NCBI GenBank assembly: GCA_964465205.1
Contig: CAYXJO010000001.1
Coordinates: forward strand, 5,099 to 69,098
DNA length: 64,000 bases
From: an uncultured Gammaproteobacteria bacterium
GTDB lineage: Bacteria; Patescibacteriota; Patescibacteriia; Magasanikbacterales; GWA2-37-8
Direction: 5' to 3'
Made by a program: the position numbers and the translations under genes. Numbering within the stretch: the stretch's first letter is position 1; every line of letters begins with the position of its first letter. This document shows positions 9,495 through 12,082 of the stretch, piece after piece. The notes under the pieces were generated by a model that was not told the DNA's origin, searched no databases, and worked only from the letters and a program-made list of their open reading frames with translations.

Positions 9495-9802
9495 TGCTGT
9501 ATTTTAAAGATTGTTCTATTTTTTCCGTTTTTAGTATAGATTAAGTATATCTCATTCTAGCACGTTTTTTAAATTCAGATTTTTTGAGAAAATTATTACT
9601 TTGGTGTCAAATTCTTTAGTAGTTGAAAACAAAAAATCACCTTTATTATTAAAGATGATTTTTTGAAATGCCCCGTCGTCTCTTTTTACAGAGAGTAGGG
9701 GCGGTTGAAGCCGGAACGTTTATGTCACCGGGCGTAGTTGATGGTTGGAAAGAACTTCGCTAGTTCGTCATACGCAGACGAACGCAGATGAGATGATTGG
9801 GT

Positions 9803-11674
9803 CTATGTGGCCGCGGGAGAATCCAGATTGGCCGACTTGGGCTGCTTCACGAGCTGGTCGCGGAGCAAGTTGGCGAGTAATACATCCACGAGGCCGCCTC
9901 CGTTGGAATTGTTGCTGCCGCTGGCCATGATCTCGGGCACCAGGGGCACGCCGGCCGCGGCGAGCGAACGAGCGACCTCCACGATGGCGAACTTGTCCTG
10001 ACCCATGGCGTCGGTCTTCTTCTGGATGACCTTGGCCTCGGCTTCGCCGACGGCCGTGATCTTCTTGCCCTCGGCTTCGCCGACCTGGGTCAGCACGTAG
10101 GCGTCGGCTTCGGCCTGGGTCCGTTTGGCCTGCGCCTCGCCCTCGGCCTTGGCCTTGAGCGCGTTGCCGTCGCCGGCAGCCTTCTTCACGGCCGCCGTGG
10201 CCTCGAAGTCGGCGATGGAGACCTTCCGCTCGGCGGCCACGACCTCCTTCTGGGTATCGGCCATGGCGGTCGCCTGCTCCAATTCCTGGCGGACTTCCTG
10301 CGCCTCCTTCTGGGTCGTGAACGTGGCCTTCTCGAATTCGGCCACCTTCTTGGCCGTCAGTGTGTCCATCAGCTCATCGGGGGGGTTGATGTCCCCGATG
10401 AGGGTGTCGACTGCGTTGACGTTGTACACGTCGAGGGCGGTCTTGATGGCGTCCTTGGCTTCGGACTGGCGCTGCGAGCGCGCCTTCAGGAAGTCGATGA
10501 CGTCCGATGACTGCGCCGTGTTGCGGAAATAGTTGCCGATGATTGGCTCGAGCACCTGGGTGACCAGGTTCCCGACCGTCCCGAAGCGCGCGATGACCTT
10601 GGGGGCCTCGGTGCGCGGGATGTGGATGATCTGACTCACGTCCAGGTTGAACGTGAAGCCGTCGGCGGAGCGCACCGTGATGGTGCTCAGGTCGGAGTCG
10701 AGGTTGTGGGCCTCGGTCTTCCCAGTGGCCCAGTTCAACACGATGTTGGCCGTTGGGACGAGCTCGACCTTGTGCGTGTACGGGTTGATCGCGTACATGC
10801 CGGGGTCGAGGGGTTCGATCCAGACGCCCTTCTCGTTCTTCTTGCACAGGTTGCCGTGCTGGAAGGCGTCACCCGTCACGTCCTGCCCTTCCTCGCCGAC
10901 GTAGGCGATGACCACGCCCGCGTGGGCGATGGGCACCTCGGTCATGCGCTTGGTCTCGACCGAGATGAAGTGCGGGTTGACGTAGTACATGCCGGCCAGC
11001 ATGACCTGCTCCTGCAGGCCCTTGAAGCCGCCGTTGTCCACGAATGCCTGGCCGTCCTGGTACATGGTGTGCCCCTTGGTCTCGCGGCCGGCGATCTCGC
11101 CGGTGGGGAGGGGCTTGCCTTCCTTCGTGGTCACGATGCCCACCATGTTGTCGTCGATCTGGAGGGCTTTCTCGAACTTGACCGTAAACAGGCCGGTGTT
11201 GATTCGGTAGGTGCCGGGCGGGATGACGTTGATCTGGATGCCGCGCTCGCCTCCATTGCTCAGGAACGCTCGCGCGCTCTGGAACATGTCGGCGTCGACG
11301 TGTTTGGCGAGCACGCGGCCCTTGCCGAGCGGCTTGCCGTCCTTGGCCTCGACCACGCCGACGGAGCCCACTGGGATCGTGATGAACTTCTGGATCATGA
11401 TCTCGAACTGCCAGGGCCAGAAGAAAAAGTGCAGGCCGGGGGCCAGGGTGTCGGCCTGGATGCCCGCCTCGCCGTTCAGTGCGATGATCGCGCCGTCGGG
11501 TAGGGTCTTGTTGGGGCCGAAGAGCTTGAACTTCTTGTTCACCACGCCCAGGCTGTCGTCCGGGATCAGGACGATGCCGAAGAGCCGGATCGTCCACTTG
11601 ATGAATACGAAAAACAGCACAATCGGCACGACCCACCAGTAACTTAGCGCAACTCTCAAAATTTCATTCTCCAT
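9803..11674 (-). CDS. Flotillin/SPFH (band 7) family protein, YqiK-like
   Basis: N-terminal TM segment, SPFH domain, and a long Ala/Glu/Lys-rich coiled-coil C-terminus typical of flotillins. Strong RBS GAAGGAGAC. The gene is conspicuously GC-rich compared with its flanks. Confidence 0.8.
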   Translation of the reverse strand: MENEILRVALSYWWVVPIVLFFVFIKWTIRLFGIVLIPDDSLGVVNKKFKLFGPNKTLPDGAIIALNGEAGIQADTLAPGLHFFFWPWQFEIMIQKFITIPVGSVGVVEAKDGKPLGKGRVLAKHVDADMFQSARAFLSNGGERGIQINVIPPGTYRINTGLFTVKFEKALQIDDNMVGIVTTKEGKPLPTGEIAGRETKGHTMYQDGQAFVDNGGFKGLQEQVMLAGMYYVNPHFISVETKRMTEVPIAHAGVVIAYVGEEGQDVTGDAFQHGNLCKKNEKGVWIEPLDPGMYAINPYTHKVELVPTANIVLNWATGKTEAHNLDSDLSTITVRSADGFTFNLDVSQIIHIPRTEAPKVIARFGTVGNLVTQVLEPIIGNYFRNTAQSSDVIDFLKARSQRQSEAKDAIKTALDVYNVNAVDTLIGDINPPDELMDTLTAKKVAEFEKATFTTQKEAQEVRQELEQATAMADTQKEVVAAERKVSIADFEATAAVKKAAGDGNALKAKAEGEAQAKRTQAEADAYVLTQVGEAEGKKITAVGEAEAKVIQKKTDAMGQDKFAIVEVARSLAAAGVPLVPEIMASGSNNSNGGGLVDVLLANLLRDQLVKQPKSANLDSPAAT

Positions 11675-12082
11675 GTTCGCGGTCTCCTTCTACATTTCGA
11701 TTGTTAATGACCATCTACGCAGACGCGTAGAAGCCCCCCAAACCCATTGGGGAACAAATGAATATACCACCAATCCTTTTTTTGTCAAGATTCTGTTGTG
11801 GATAAGTAATTATTTAATAATAAAACTTTAGCTATATTTGTGTTTAAATAAAGGTGGTTTTTTTGGATAAGTTGTCTATTAATTGATAGTTACAGCATCT
11901 TCAACATTAATAAAATTGAAATGATTTCAGACGAATATGGCGACCAAGCATAGTGCTTCAAACCATATGGTTTCTGCTCCAATACAGATATTTTTTTGTT
12001 GCCAATAAGTTGGCAACAAAAAAATAGGGTGTGGTGACTACCATCGCCGATCAGCCGAAAGAATTTGACATTTTCTATGATG

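Follow-up and report, generated by a model that had tools for sequence, protein, structure and literature searches.

The window analysed here is a 64-kb stretch of DNA from a genome of Ca. Magasanikiibacteriota (CPR/Patescibacteria), in which a single GC-rich gene for an SPFH/Band-7 protein lies between a host gene, hyp175, and a pair of tRNA genes. The locus includes the following features:

8916..9443, forward strand: hyp175, host gene at the left border, with homologues in the same slot of sisters without the SPFH gene
9444..12081, unstranded: lineage-specific interval, from the hyp175 stop to the tRNA-Arg 3' end
9464..9493, unstranded: bidirectional terminator hairpin past hyp175, with a perfect 15-bp stem
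9630..9702, reverse strand: 3' trailer, with two consecutive hairpins (GC-rich at 9670-9702, A/U-flanked at 9630-9665), then a U-run
9670..11597, unstranded: GC-rich block in the strict sense, as delimited by two-state likelihood segmentation (GC 0.63 vs 0.36 outside)
9803..11674, reverse strand: gene for a 623-aa SPFH/Band-7 membrane protein, the foreign cargo (from ORF, Pfam, and GC3)
11675..11756, reverse strand: 5' leader, with two hairpins, then a Shine-Dalgarno GGAG 9 nt ahead of the ATG
11761..11788, reverse strand: predicted promoter of the sigma-70 type, close to consensus (TTGACA-16 nt-TATATT, TG-extended, 11/12 matches)
11989..12026, unstranded: intact terminator of the tRNA pair, a perfect hairpin with a 17-bp stem and A/T runs, between tRNA and island
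12082..12154, reverse strand: tRNA-Arg(TCG), with the island on its 3' side
12265..12338, reverse strand: tRNA-Lys(CTT)

The interval 9444-12081 consists of the GC-rich block plus AT-rich padding (~220 and ~330 bp), for which no second copy was found within the window. As the initial annotation had stated, it holds neither an NfeD gene nor an integrase: the SPFH gene is its only real ORF, and no transposase gene was found there either. The two tRNA genes reported nearby were also recovered, 408 and 591 bp from the SPFH start codon, and an Rfam scan of the window returned five tRNAs and nothing else. No Pfam or NCBIfam match was obtained for hyp175, and exact-protein look-ups found no record of the SPFH protein, of a junction-straddling 52-aa ORF, or of a 165-aa ORF.

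The composition of the SPFH gene departs sharply from that of its surroundings. In 300-nt windows, GC is 0.61-0.68 over 9750 to 11550 and 0.30-0.45 in the flanks, a contrast stronger than the one first guessed by eye (>60% vs 35-40%), and right of 11597 a foreign-like composition extends at intermediate GC up to ~11755. The gene itself has a GC of 0.632 (63%, vs 43% for the host genome), with GC1 0.61, GC2 0.38, and GC3 0.91, the latter at z = 9.7 relative to host genes (0.441 +/- 0.048, n=36). The tetranucleotide comparison proposed earlier likewise set the block clearly apart, with an L1 distance to the host of 0.681 vs 0.219 +/- 0.020 for 2.1-kb host windows (max 0.262), i.e. a ~23 SD outlier. 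Across 30-codon blocks, GC3 is 0.87-1.0 throughout, except for the first 30 codons at 0.67, and a similar dip at the 5' end is also present in native homologues from high-GC genomes. Since the GC3 of the gene equals that of native homologues in 60-69% GC contigs, amelioration is undetectable. A native lineage gene whose high GC reflects an intrinsic property, e.g. its expression level or amino-acid composition, might be suggested by the lower GC3 of the first 30 codons and by the host-style expression signals. However, the dip is shared with those high-GC homologues, GC2 is ordinary while GC3 is 0.91 and the bias thus sits in synonymous positions, the tetranucleotide signature is that of an extreme outlier, and the gene is missing from 40 relatives, so that we regard the probability of a native origin as negligible.

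These relatives are 40 Magasanikiibacteriota/Patescibacteria loci anchored on RNase III (53-81% aa identity), none of which carries the SPFH gene. The FemAB-L32-NusB-RNaseIII-tRNA-Lys-tRNA-Arg synteny is conserved in sisters, and the order RNase III, tRNA-Lys, tRNA-Arg was kept in all 20 loci scanned for tRNAs (20/20), with tRNA-Arg(TCG) on the opposite strand in one (L006). The adjoining slot is hypervariable, ranging from 0.06 to 5.6 kb with cargo that differs among sisters, and no DNA match of 9444-12060 to any sister was found. Synteny, which the initial annotation had named as a check, also revealed two empty sites, where only 57 bp (L026, with a hyp175 homologue 61% identical) and 163 bp (L007) separate the hyp175 stop from the tRNA-Arg 3' end.

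The left junction is reproduced exactly by two independent Logan run assemblies (SRR11845628, SRR11845629), in sequences corresponding to window 8591-10067 (L134) and 8776-9861 (L135), both 100% identical, which makes a chimeric assembly unlikely. Sequence from a high-GC organism joined by mistake into a CPR contig would be in keeping with the metagenome-type source, the abrupt switch in composition, and a right junction not reproduced in a second assembly. However, in addition to the left junction being confirmed in both per-run assemblies, such an artefact would need two joins placed exactly around one intact gene with its promoter, ribosome-binding site, and terminators, host synteny picks up again on both sides, and the same anatomy is found in independent data sets and deposited Nomurabacteria MAGs. 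We consequently hold an assembly artefact to be highly improbable. Foreign composition, absence of the gene from all 40 sister loci, two empty sites, and a reproduced left junction together make a recent single-gene horizontal transfer well supported, and the earlier view of the SPFH gene as a lone cargo, recently gained near two tRNA genes, is upheld.

The encoded protein belongs to the SPFH / Band-7 superfamily based on a Band_7 match (PF01145) over residues 278-463 (E = 1.8e-26, 93.7 bits vs a gathering cut-off of 23.6). AF2 modelling on an alignment of 40 sequences gave a poor result (mean pLDDT 57, SPFH core <50), of which only the secondary-structure layout was used. This layout comprises an N-terminal TM helix, three beta-rich repeats forming an extra region of ~240 aa ahead of the Pfam-recognised SPFH core, the SPFH region, and long coiled-coil helices. 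The hydrophobic N-terminal segment VALSYWWVVPIVLFFVFIKWTIRLFGIV, with predicted helices at 2-11 and 15-31 (pLDDT 71-83), would provide a membrane anchor. Profile matches in the PDB were best for QmcA (8z5g, 6.5e-5), followed by the C-terminal region of Flotillin-2 (1.7e-4) and prohibitin (1.6e-3), and by analogy with such proteins the SPFH product would oligomerise into a ring or cage attached to the membrane. The initial annotation had called this gene a flotillin, a label we do not retain: no match to the PF15975 Flot domain was found with Pfam at E <= 0.01, while the same library detects it in E. coli YqiK at 139.8 bits (6e-41), and the best BLASTP hit to YqiK (E = 0.03, 28% identity) is limited to 109 aa of coiled coil. 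JGI annotates relatives of the protein as 'YqiK'.

Flotillins of the SPFH2 class (YqiK/FloT) have an NfeD-type operon partner, YqiJ/YuaF (PMC2636767), and a missing NfeD had been taken as the mark of a truncated cargo. This argument falls away, as no conserved neighbour of the SPFH family was found over 86 homologue loci: the family is stand-alone everywhere, and an absent NfeD partner is therefore uninformative. A tblastn search with YqiJ gave no match in these 86 loci, and for a native copy (L129-L131) no NfeD Pfam family was listed among the called neighbours or detected in the three neighbours scanned directly with Pfam. A role in a defence system was considered as well and found unsupported, PADLOC and NCBIfam searches both returning no match.

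The gene appears to be equipped with expression signals. Six promoter-like sites were identified vs 1.6 expected, the best-scoring of which is the predicted promoter at 11761..11788. It lies just 5' of the foreign block in the AT-rich padding, and so may or may not have arrived with the gene. The 5' leader RNA has a predicted fold of -27.8 kcal/mol (z = -2.6), and its second hairpin, CUACGCGUCUGCGUAG, includes one of the decamer copies described below. The 3' trailer is predicted to fold at -43.4 kcal/mol (z = -5.9; 0/200 shuffles equally stable), and its two hairpins are the probable terminator of the SPFH transcript. A 5'-leader hairpin motif shared across the family was rejected, as leaders are structured in most loci yet lack a common sequence.

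We next consider how the gene was inserted. The initial annotation had pointed to an exact decamer at both borders, possibly an att core or target-site duplication:

9771..9780, forward strand: left decamer TACGCAGACG, 23 nt beyond the stop codon, inside a GTTCGTC/GACGAAC hairpin
11716..11725, forward strand: right decamer TACGCAGACG, 42-51 nt 5' of the start codon, within a 5'-leader hairpin

Two copies do exist, and only two in the 64-kb window, although the right-hand coordinates first given were off by one and the match is at chance level. Site-specific or transpositional integration with this decamer as att core or target-site duplication, and the neighbouring tRNAs as target, would explain why one copy lies on each side of the gene, as well as the position of the island 3' of a tRNA, which is classical for integrated islands; real long flanking duplications also occur near SPFH genes in two other CPR genomes. 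However, matches of >=10 nt are shared by 8% of equally spaced 200-bp window pairs from the same sequence, and across ~70 homologue loci the exact repeats flanking the gene (+/-600 bp) reach a maximum length of 8-10 nt in nearly every case, with exactly 10 nt at 16 loci. A longer match requires an indel, and gapped local alignment of both flanks was equalled or bettered in 103/300 shuffles. The left copy is 100 nt within the GC-rich block, with GC-rich DNA continuing outside of it, and each copy belongs to a local hairpin in a transcript UTR. The decamer is absent from the sisters' empty sites (L026, L007), and no recurrence was seen at other loci of the SPFH family.

Deviant composition and absence from relatives, as expected of a tRNA-integrated island, were both found, whereas the signature of tRNA-directed integration was not: each 21-mer from the two tRNA 3' ends has a single occurrence with <=3 mismatches allowed, aligning the tRNA and 40 further nt locally to the far side gave a direct score of 9.0 vs a shuffle mean of 8.9, and the interval has no recombinase gene. 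Taken together, integration through the decamer is very unlikely, and its reading as an att core or target-site duplication was abandoned.

Homologues of the SPFH protein provide some information about its source. The best share 66-73% aa identity, with DNA similarity of <=76% restricted to the CDS, and named relatives come from Sumerlaeota, Vicinamibacterales, and Niveibacterium. With no donor above ~73%, the direction and recency of the transfer are judged from composition and from the lack of the gene in fairly distant sisters (RNase III <=81%). In a 46-sequence bootstrapped tree of the family, the nearest relative is P0002 (100% bootstrap), and since P0002 is itself on a low-GC contig a CPR-to-CPR step is conceivable, although GC3 values of 0.91 vs 0.76 argue against a low-GC ancestor common with P0002.

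Out-of-place GC-rich SPFH copies were also detected on four other contigs (L050, L059, L128, L044) and on a jumbo-phage-like contig (L051), spread over different clades of the tree. Exact protein matches assign L050 to Ca. Nomurabacteria, L059 encodes an SmpB 82% identical to a Ca. Paceibacterota protein, and further homologues are found on IMG/VR contigs. Beyond the present locus, a minimum of two CPR lineages and one jumbo-phage-like contig have thus each gained the SPFH family independently. In L059 the gene is flanked by a 37-bp repeat present as a single copy in the insertion-free relative L136, and the P0122 contig has the gene order of L059 without the SPFH gene, while L050 has flanking duplications of 20-30 bp. 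Among four outliers with long repeats, only these two look like target duplications; long flanking repeats were thus discarded as a family-wide trait, those of L102 being paralogous gene 3' ends and those of L087 a REP-like hairpin element. No direct or inverted flank repeat >=10 nt was found for L044, L128, or L051. A shared mobile backbone was likewise rejected, as leaders and trailers of seven out-of-place copies lack significant homology (z <= 3.7) and DNA similarity is confined to the CDS, and no conserved recombination site common to the loci was found.

Overall, we consider it likely that this Ca. Magasanikiibacteriota genome recently gained a complete, stand-alone SPFH gene from an unsampled high-GC bacterium. 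We infer the donor, route, expression, and protein function as follows. The gene would have landed in the hypervariable intergenic slot on the 3' side of the block of RNase III, tRNA-Lys(CTT), and tRNA-Arg(TCG), the foreign DNA being gene-sized, i.e. the CDS with a structured leader of ~80 nt and a trailer of ~135 nt. Transcription would probably start from the near-consensus sigma-70 promoter upstream and end at the two hairpins, with translation from the GGAG ribosome-binding site, and the product, like QmcA, HflK/C, and flotillins, would form a ring or cage organizing a membrane microdomain. The most likely route would be uptake of foreign DNA, free or phage-borne, then illegitimate or short-homology insertion into a permissive, terminator-rich intergenic site, and then rapid loss of non-selected flanking DNA, leaving the gene alone. 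This route is proposed from the signatures that are missing, namely an att core, a tRNA-end duplication, a significant target duplication, and a recombinase gene.

Alternatively, the gene could be what is left of a larger tRNA-integrated island or prophage, from which integrase, att sites, and other cargo were deleted while one selected gene remained. CPR genomes are streamlined, making such deletion plausible, and the position 3' of tRNA-Arg in a slot with varied cargo in sisters, the ~550 bp of orphan AT-rich DNA around the gene, and the homologues on jumbo-phage-like and IMG/VR contigs would all be compatible with it. Conversely, GC-rich DNA ends within ~100 nt of the CDS on both sides without pseudogene fragments, no leftover tRNA-end repeat was found, the padding is AT-rich and unlike the cargo, and the unameliorated GC3 implies little time for extensive decay. 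We thus judge such a remnant improbable.

Further inverted repeats raise the question of whether terminator hairpins guided the insertion, both around the SPFH gene and at a second islet in the window:

9605..9617, forward strand: TGTCAAATTCTTT, perfect 13-nt inverted partner of 12058-12070, the latter 12 nt from the tRNA-Arg 3' end
11847..11863, forward strand: solitary arm AATAAAGGTGGTTTTTT, complementary to 16/17 of 9631-9647, the left arm of the 9630-9665 hairpin
15275..15845, strand not assigned: islet 2, a single-gene, GC-rich islet 3.4 kb away, adjoining another tRNA-Arg

Under this scenario, which refines our preferred explanation and does not exclude it, insertion would have occurred at a terminator hairpin and doubled one of its arms, giving a target duplication of variable length (13-37 bp). 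Starting at the tRNA, one would meet the solitary arm at 11847-11863, then promoter, gene, and terminator, then the full hairpin at 9630-9665, and the same process would have generated islet 2 and the 37-bp and 20-30-bp duplications of L059 and L050. Islet 2 has a robust inverted repeat of ~44 nt, which scores 25.5 vs a shuffle maximum of 13.5, and part of one arm is directly copied and re-forms a hairpin. Many sisters also have a single long hairpin immediately 3' of tRNA-Arg(CCG), and the L059 repeat occurs once in its insertion-free relative, with the P0122 contig preserving the same order. At the SPFH locus, only 1/300 shuffles reaches the score of the arm pair 9631-9647/11847-11863, which makes the latter sequence a marginal candidate for a duplicated hairpin arm, the pair bracketing promoter, gene, and terminator (2.2 kb). 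However, this pair is short and AT-rich with no target duplication beyond it, 6/17 nt are a generic A/T run (~11/17 specific), and its direct-repeat component (14/18) is not significant.

The pair 9605-9617/12058-12070 is similarly marginal (score 13.0 vs a shuffle maximum of 12.5), short, AT-rich, and without a flanking target duplication. No direct repeat above chance was found just outside the element ends around the SPFH block, and the terminators at 9464-9493 and 11989-12026 were rejected as a diverged target duplication, their A/T runs being in opposite order and their stems different. Elsewhere, L044, L128, and L051 lack flank repeats of >=10 nt, the L059 repeat is not a hairpin arm, the sister hairpins have no sequence homology to the arms in the window, and no enzyme was identified. 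Inspection of the islet-2 hairpin by eye showed no integron core sites, and Rfam gave no known RNA for the GC-rich patch at 15.3 kb. Arm duplication at a hairpin is hence possible but unlikely. A still broader and rather doubtful reading is that CPR repeatedly capture gene-sized promoter-to-terminator cassettes at terminator-rich sites, often 3' of tRNAs, with target or arm duplications of 13-37 bp and no element-encoded recombinase. This would take in an SPFH gene caught at least three times in three CPR lineages along with an unrelated GC-rich gene 3.4 kb off, and, if true, would represent an undescribed insertion mechanism, perhaps tied to DNA uptake or to a host- or phage-encoded enzyme acting in trans.

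Returning to the preferred reading of a single captured gene, this locus offers an unusually clean case of a very recent cross-phylum capture of one complete gene by an ultra-small, host-dependent CPR bacterium. By analogy, the SPFH cargo would be a membrane-organizing scaffold. Work cited in PMC12455944 describes certain Patescibacteria as being without fatty-acid synthesis and possibly recycling the lipids of other bacteria. That three or more CPR lineages and a jumbo-phage-like genome gained this gene family independently hints at either a benefit to such cells or an unusual ease of transfer. Two easy errors are also corrected here, namely taking a 10-nt flanking match for an att site and extending the flotillin name to all long SPFH proteins. 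Related loci with their target duplications, together with the second islet, provide a concrete, testable lead on how single genes without a recombinase enter CPR genomes.

Compared with classical tyrosine-integrase tRNA islands, the SPFH island shares a location 3' of a tRNA, a slot variable among relatives, and deviant GC, but it measures 2 kb rather than 10-200 kb, has no integrase and no repeat of the tRNA 3' end, and is separated from the tRNA by an intact terminator hairpin. REP-targeting IS elements and integron attC cassettes are insertion elements aimed at hairpins or palindromes. Compared from general knowledge, islet 2, and weakly islet 1, resemble these in lying between hairpin-arm copies with gene-sized cargo, whereas no transposase or integron integrase and no shared recombination site were found, and duplications range from 13 to 37 bp. 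The protein resembles flotillins (E. coli YqiK-YqiJ, B. subtilis FloT/YuaG-YuaF) in its N-terminal anchor, SPFH/Band_7 domain, long alanine/glutamate-rich coiled coil, and weak C-terminal profile match to human Flotillin-2, but differs in lacking PF15975 and an NfeD/YqiJ partner in 86 loci and in its additional beta-repeat region. Its homology to E. coli QmcA, HflK/C, and prohibitin is remote, and the ring or cage is suggested by analogy only, given the low pLDDT of the model. SPFH genes are prone to HGT (PMC2636767), and in Patescibacteria genomic islands and singly transferred genes have been documented by the hundreds, making up as much as 13% of genome length (PMC12455944). As in those islands, a deviant gene missing in relatives is found here in a streamlined CPR genome, with a membrane-associated cargo and probably a donor outside the phylum; here, however, the insertion comprises exactly one gene with no mobility gene, its GC3 is extreme and unameliorated (0.91 vs 0.44), and a sister empty site and one junction are verified.

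Recent horizontal acquisition of a single, stand-alone SPFH-family gene by this CPR bacterium is well supported, and the initial reading of the region as a recently integrated single-gene cargo holds on the grounds of foreign composition, sister loci that lack the gene, and a left junction reproduced in separate assemblies. GC content is 0.61–0.68 over 9750-11550 against 0.30–0.45 in both flanks (300-nt windows), which confirms a contrast originally judged by eye. In tetranucleotide composition, the SPFH gene lies at an L1 distance of 0.681 from the host, against 0.219 ± 0.020 (maximum 0.262) for host windows of 2.1 kb. 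This GC-rich region holds a single long ORF, the 623-aa gene (9803-11674, minus strand), with a GC of 0.632 (GC1 0.61, GC2 0.38, GC3 0.91); its GC3 is 9.7 SD away from the host value of 0.441 ± 0.048, calculated from 36 ordinary genes within the window's initial 41 kb. Two-state likelihood segmentation delimited a strict GC-rich block at 9670-11597, with intermediate GC in the first ~26 codons and 5' leader of the gene, and a fall to intergenic host GC (0.2–0.3), reached near 9665 (left) and 11755 (right). By codon, GC3 is 0.67 over the first 30 codons and 0.87–1.0 thereafter; native SPFH homologues display the same kind of 5' dip in a milder form (0.80–0.87). The best promoter-like site of the region, a sequence prediction, lies in AT-rich DNA ~30 nt past the point at which GC falls to host level:

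11788-11761, minus strand (that of the gene): promoter-like site, TTGACA-16-(TG)TATATT

The 82-nt leader includes two predicted hairpins (z = -2.6) and a GGAG 9 nt before the ATG, while two further hairpins are predicted in the trailer (fold z = -5.9), a GC-rich one at 9670-9702 and one with A/U flanks at 9630-9665, after which comes a U-run.

Sister loci were retrieved using the neighbouring RNase III as an anchor, yielding 40 Patescibacteria loci and one distant Phycisphaeraceae match (L041), with RNase III identities to the window of 53–81%. Informatively labelled loci were mostly Candidatus Magasanikiibacteriota/Magasanikbacteria, and about half of the records carry the uninformative label “uncultured Gammaproteobacteria”. 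Gene order in the sisters is kept as FemAB, L32, NusB, RNase III, a variable stretch, and a PHP-domain protein, and RNase III is followed by tRNA-Lys(CTT) and tRNA-Arg(TCG) in 20 of the 20 loci scanned for tRNAs. In the window, both of these tRNA genes, previously placed near the SPFH gene, were confirmed by ARAGORN and Rfam:

12082-12154: tRNA-Arg(TCG)
12265-12338: tRNA-Lys(CTT)

The island is absent from the sisters, the outcome on which the cargo reading had been made to depend: tblastn gave no match to the SPFH protein within 10 kb in any RNase III-anchored locus, and the gene was at this place in none of them. In L026, a sister with an empty site, the homologue (61% identity) of the host gene bordering the island on the left (hyp175) stops 57 bp short of the 3' end of tRNA-Arg, and one terminator hairpin separates the two. 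The corresponding gap is 163 bp in L007, another empty-site sister, and 2,638 bp (9444-12081) in the window, a stretch with no DNA-level match to any sister. Beyond tRNA-Arg, sisters carry 57 bp to 5.6 kb of variable content, including a family of ~280-aa proteins, small ORFs, and ~890-aa ORFs whose N-terminal sequences suggest putative P-type ATPases. Overall, foreign genes seem to be repeatedly gained in the slot that separates tRNA-Arg(TCG) from the PHP gene.

Additional features were observed around this slot. The sister Magasanikbacteria locus L027 encodes its own 132-aa ORF between tRNA-Arg(TCG) and the PHP gene (15657-16055; GC 0.65, GC3 0.78). Separately, the window includes at 8528-8820, between the PHP-domain gene and hyp175, a DNA element 70–92% identical at the nucleotide level in ~25 sister loci, a conservation which looks high for intergenic DNA given that neighbouring proteins are only 55–80% identical at the amino acid level in the same loci. 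This element overlaps a 41-aa lysine-rich ORF (8528-8653, minus strand, MPNMAAKKKAKKKVVRKVAKKK...), has no Rfam or Pfam match, and could represent either an RNA or a small basic protein and its conserved leader.

A false join of a GC-rich gene into a CPR contig during assembly is very improbable. Among separate per-run Logan assemblies found via exact-protein look-ups, contigs L134 (SRR11845628) and L135 (SRR11845629) are 100% identical to window 8591-10067 and 8776-9861, respectively, both spanning the left AT-rich/GC-rich junction, and a further contig, L133, matches 12302-13808. Such an artefact would also require two joins placed exactly around a single intact gene and its expression signals, with a return to host synteny on either side, and the same anatomy is found in unrelated data sets.

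The decamer TACGCAGACG initially noted at both borders does occur exactly twice in the window, at 9771-9780 and 11716-11725, the right-hand copy being one base away from its first reported position. Its proposed role as an att core or target-site duplication was not upheld, as such repeats occur at background frequency in three controls. Repeats of at least 10 nt are shared within 8% of equally spaced 200-bp window pairs from the same window; when the 600-bp stretches upstream and downstream of the gene were compared in ~70 homologue loci, the longest exact repeat was 8–10 nt in nearly all of them, and exactly 10 nt in 16; and 103 of 300 composition-preserving shuffles equalled or exceeded the gapped local alignment of the two flanks. 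Its position also argues against an att role, since the left copy lies 100 nt within the GC-rich block and foreign-looking DNA continues outside it. Each copy forms half of a small local hairpin in the untranslated regions of the transcript. The decamer was not found at the empty sites of L026 and L007, and was not associated with the SPFH gene elsewhere, with 3 stray occurrences in ~1.3 Mb of loci, near the chance expectation estimated from sequence length. Taken together, the decamer is no evidence of integration. No second copy was found of the 3' end of either tRNA-Arg(TCG) or tRNA-Lys(CTT), hence the classical tRNA-att signature is absent.

In the Pfam scan, the protein matched Band_7/SPFH alone (residues 278-463), with no match to the Flotillin domain (Flot, PF15975), and NCBIfam and PADLOC gave no match. 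For comparison, E. coli YqiK and YqiJ scanned in the same library yielded 139.8 bits on PF15975 and YqiJ's own two domains, respectively. The protein aligned with YqiK in the coiled coil only (E = 0.03), and the label “flotillin” was thus not retained. A 40-sequence family profile searched against PDB sequences matched QmcA (6.5e-5), the C-terminal part of human Flotillin-2 (1.7e-4), and prohibitin (1.6e-3). Based on these matches and the missing Flot domain, the protein is a distant member of the SPFH superfamily, flotillin-like in its overall plan, and lies outside of the flotillin (SPFH2) family, for which the Flot domain and an NfeD partner are the defining features (PMC2636767). The family to which it belongs includes at least 8,000 matches and is strongly conserved over its full length, with many invariant columns within the N-terminal 250 aa. 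The AF2 model, which is poor (pLDDT 57), suggests a layout of a TM helix, three beta-rich repeats to ~residue 245, the SPFH region, and long helices at 433-557; the beta-rich repeats also show up in frame at the DNA level. Within residues 35-303, the motif PG-aromatic-x-(I/V)-N-P occurs three times, ~65–75 aa apart, with matching in-frame repeats in the DNA at spacings of 192 and 222 nt. A PGLHF motif near residue 80 resembles the usual start of an SPFH domain, and beta-hairpin repeats may split or expand this domain. By analogy with other SPFH proteins, the product would be a membrane-anchored oligomeric scaffold. The gene indeed has no NfeD partner, as first described, but this carries no significance for a cargo, since neighbour clustering over 86 homologue loci revealed no conserved neighbour; YqiJ likewise had no tblastn match among homologue loci. 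Genes of this family normally stand without an NfeD partner, and its absence here is uninformative on transfer.

The closest proteins are 66–73% identical to the window SPFH protein, named relatives include Sumerlaeota (67%), Vicinamibacterales, and Niveibacterium, and DNA similarity to homologue loci reaches at most ~76% and is confined to the CDS. The most that can be said of the donor is that it was an unsampled high-GC bacterium. For most of the 86 homologue loci, the GC of the gene equals that of its flanks (0.55–0.70), and the gene is therefore native there. The following loci instead repeat the window anatomy.

GC of SPFH genes and their flanks in loci with a GC-rich gene and low-GC flanks
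L050: gene 0.61, flanks 0.42
L044: gene 0.57, flanks 0.41
L051: gene 0.58, flanks 0.42; SPFH gene at 5956-8001
L059: gene 0.52, flanks 0.42
L128 (encodes protein P0002): gene 0.60, flanks 0.42

L050 is from Candidatus Nomurabacteria, as its neighbouring proteins exactly match named MAG proteins, and the SmpB of L059 is 82% identical to a Candidatus Paceibacterota protein. L051, a 38.9-kb metagenome contig, is jumbo-phage-like: besides a cluster of four tRNAs, it encodes a phage multisubunit RNA polymerase beta, an RNA ligase, and a metallophosphoesterase. The SPFH family is also found on 6 IMG/VR contigs, and phages could plausibly serve as a vector. A bootstrapped NJ tree recovers the window protein and P0002 as sisters (100%), gives weak support to a link with L051 (57%), and places L044, L050, and L059 in three other clades. 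A low-GC ancestor common to the window copy and P0002 is unlikely because their GC3 values are 0.91 (donor-level) and 0.76, respectively, and the proteins differ by 27%. Overall, the SPFH gene was acquired independently at least 4 times by low-GC genomes, three of them CPR.

At the first island, the window holds no sign identifying a recombinase-mediated event. By default, the foreign DNA would have arrived by uptake or phage delivery and been inserted through illegitimate or short-homology recombination into a permissive intergenic slot, with unselected flanks lost afterwards. Related insertions display additional structure. In L059, a perfect 37-bp direct repeat (2338-2374 and 4507-4543) surrounds the promoter, SPFH gene, and terminator. 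This is a proven, genuine target duplication, since L136, a relative of L059 without the insertion, has one copy of the 37-bp sequence directly upstream of smpB (5952-5987), and the contig encoding protein P0122 has the L059 gene order without the SPFH gene. No recombinase gene is found near the L059 cassette. In L050, a 20-bp perfect direct repeat, extended at ~26/30 (5794-5823 / 8008-8037), lies in AT-rich DNA around the SPFH gene; putative excisionase-like HTH and Doc/Fic-like genes, assigned from N-terminal sequences alone, are located 1.2–1.9 kb upstream. The window itself includes a second islet, GC-rich and with one gene, 3.4 kb from the first island on the 3' side of tRNA-Arg(CCG):

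15091-15163: tRNA-Arg(CCG)
15166-15967: islet 2, with a GC-rich core at 15275-15845
15362-15859, minus strand: islet-2 ORF, 165 aa, GC3 0.83

This ORF has no Pfam domain, is absent from all sister loci, and its exact protein is not on record. Islet 2 is bracketed by a ~44-nt inverted repeat (15166-15203 / 15931-15967) that scores 25.5, against at most 13.5 in shuffles, and a 13-nt perfect direct copy CCTGCTTATACTC (15190 and 15870) of part of one arm pairs with the right arm to restore a hairpin. Many sisters have a single long hairpin directly after tRNA-Arg(CCG). The first island presents a weak form of the islet-2 layout, i.e. a solitary arm, promoter, gene, terminator, and complete hairpin.

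The L059 target duplication, the L050 repeat, and the robust inverted repeat with direct arm copy of islet 2 point to insertion with a variable-length duplication of target or hairpin-arm sequence. We consider this doubtful, and a lead rather than a result. The two inverted matches bracketing the first insert (a perfect 13 nt at 9605-9617 / 12058-12070, and 16/17 at 9631-9647 / 11847-11863) are short, AT-rich, and only marginally above shuffles. Long flanking repeats of other kinds were also observed at two GC-matched, native-looking homologue loci. In L102 (5699-5825 / 7914-8040), they correspond to the 3' ends of paralogous genes, at 85% over ~125 bp and with a perfect core of 38 bp, and that of L087 (2747-2790 / 4751-4795) is a REP-like GC-rich hairpin element.

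Elevated GC was also detected elsewhere in the window. A ~15-kb block at 47000-62000 (GC3 0.6–0.75 vs 0.44 in the host; tetranucleotide distance to host 0.44) probably represents foreign DNA that is older or came from a different source. It encodes an NAD salvage and biosynthesis set, which includes a radical-SAM protein and a kinase-like protein as well as:

47728-49695: NadE
50822-52441: nicotinate phosphoribosyltransferase PncB
53251-54642: NMNAT-NAD kinase fusion

A smaller block at 41700-45000 (GC3 0.58–0.69) encodes a cytidylyltransferase-AAA protein, a GNAT acetyltransferase, and a HAD hydrolase (43541-44266) which is 38% identical to the ORF directly downstream of the SPFH gene in the homologue locus L097.

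The repeated and independent capture of this SPFH family by CPR genomes and, apparently, a phage is of moderate added interest, as are the duplications and hairpin layouts at related insertions. Horizontal transfer of SPFH genes is frequent (PMC2636767), and Patescibacteria receive genes through both island and single-gene transfer (PMC12455944). The repeated SPFH capture fits this published evidence, and the acquisition by this CPR bacterium is a new and clean instance of a known phenomenon.
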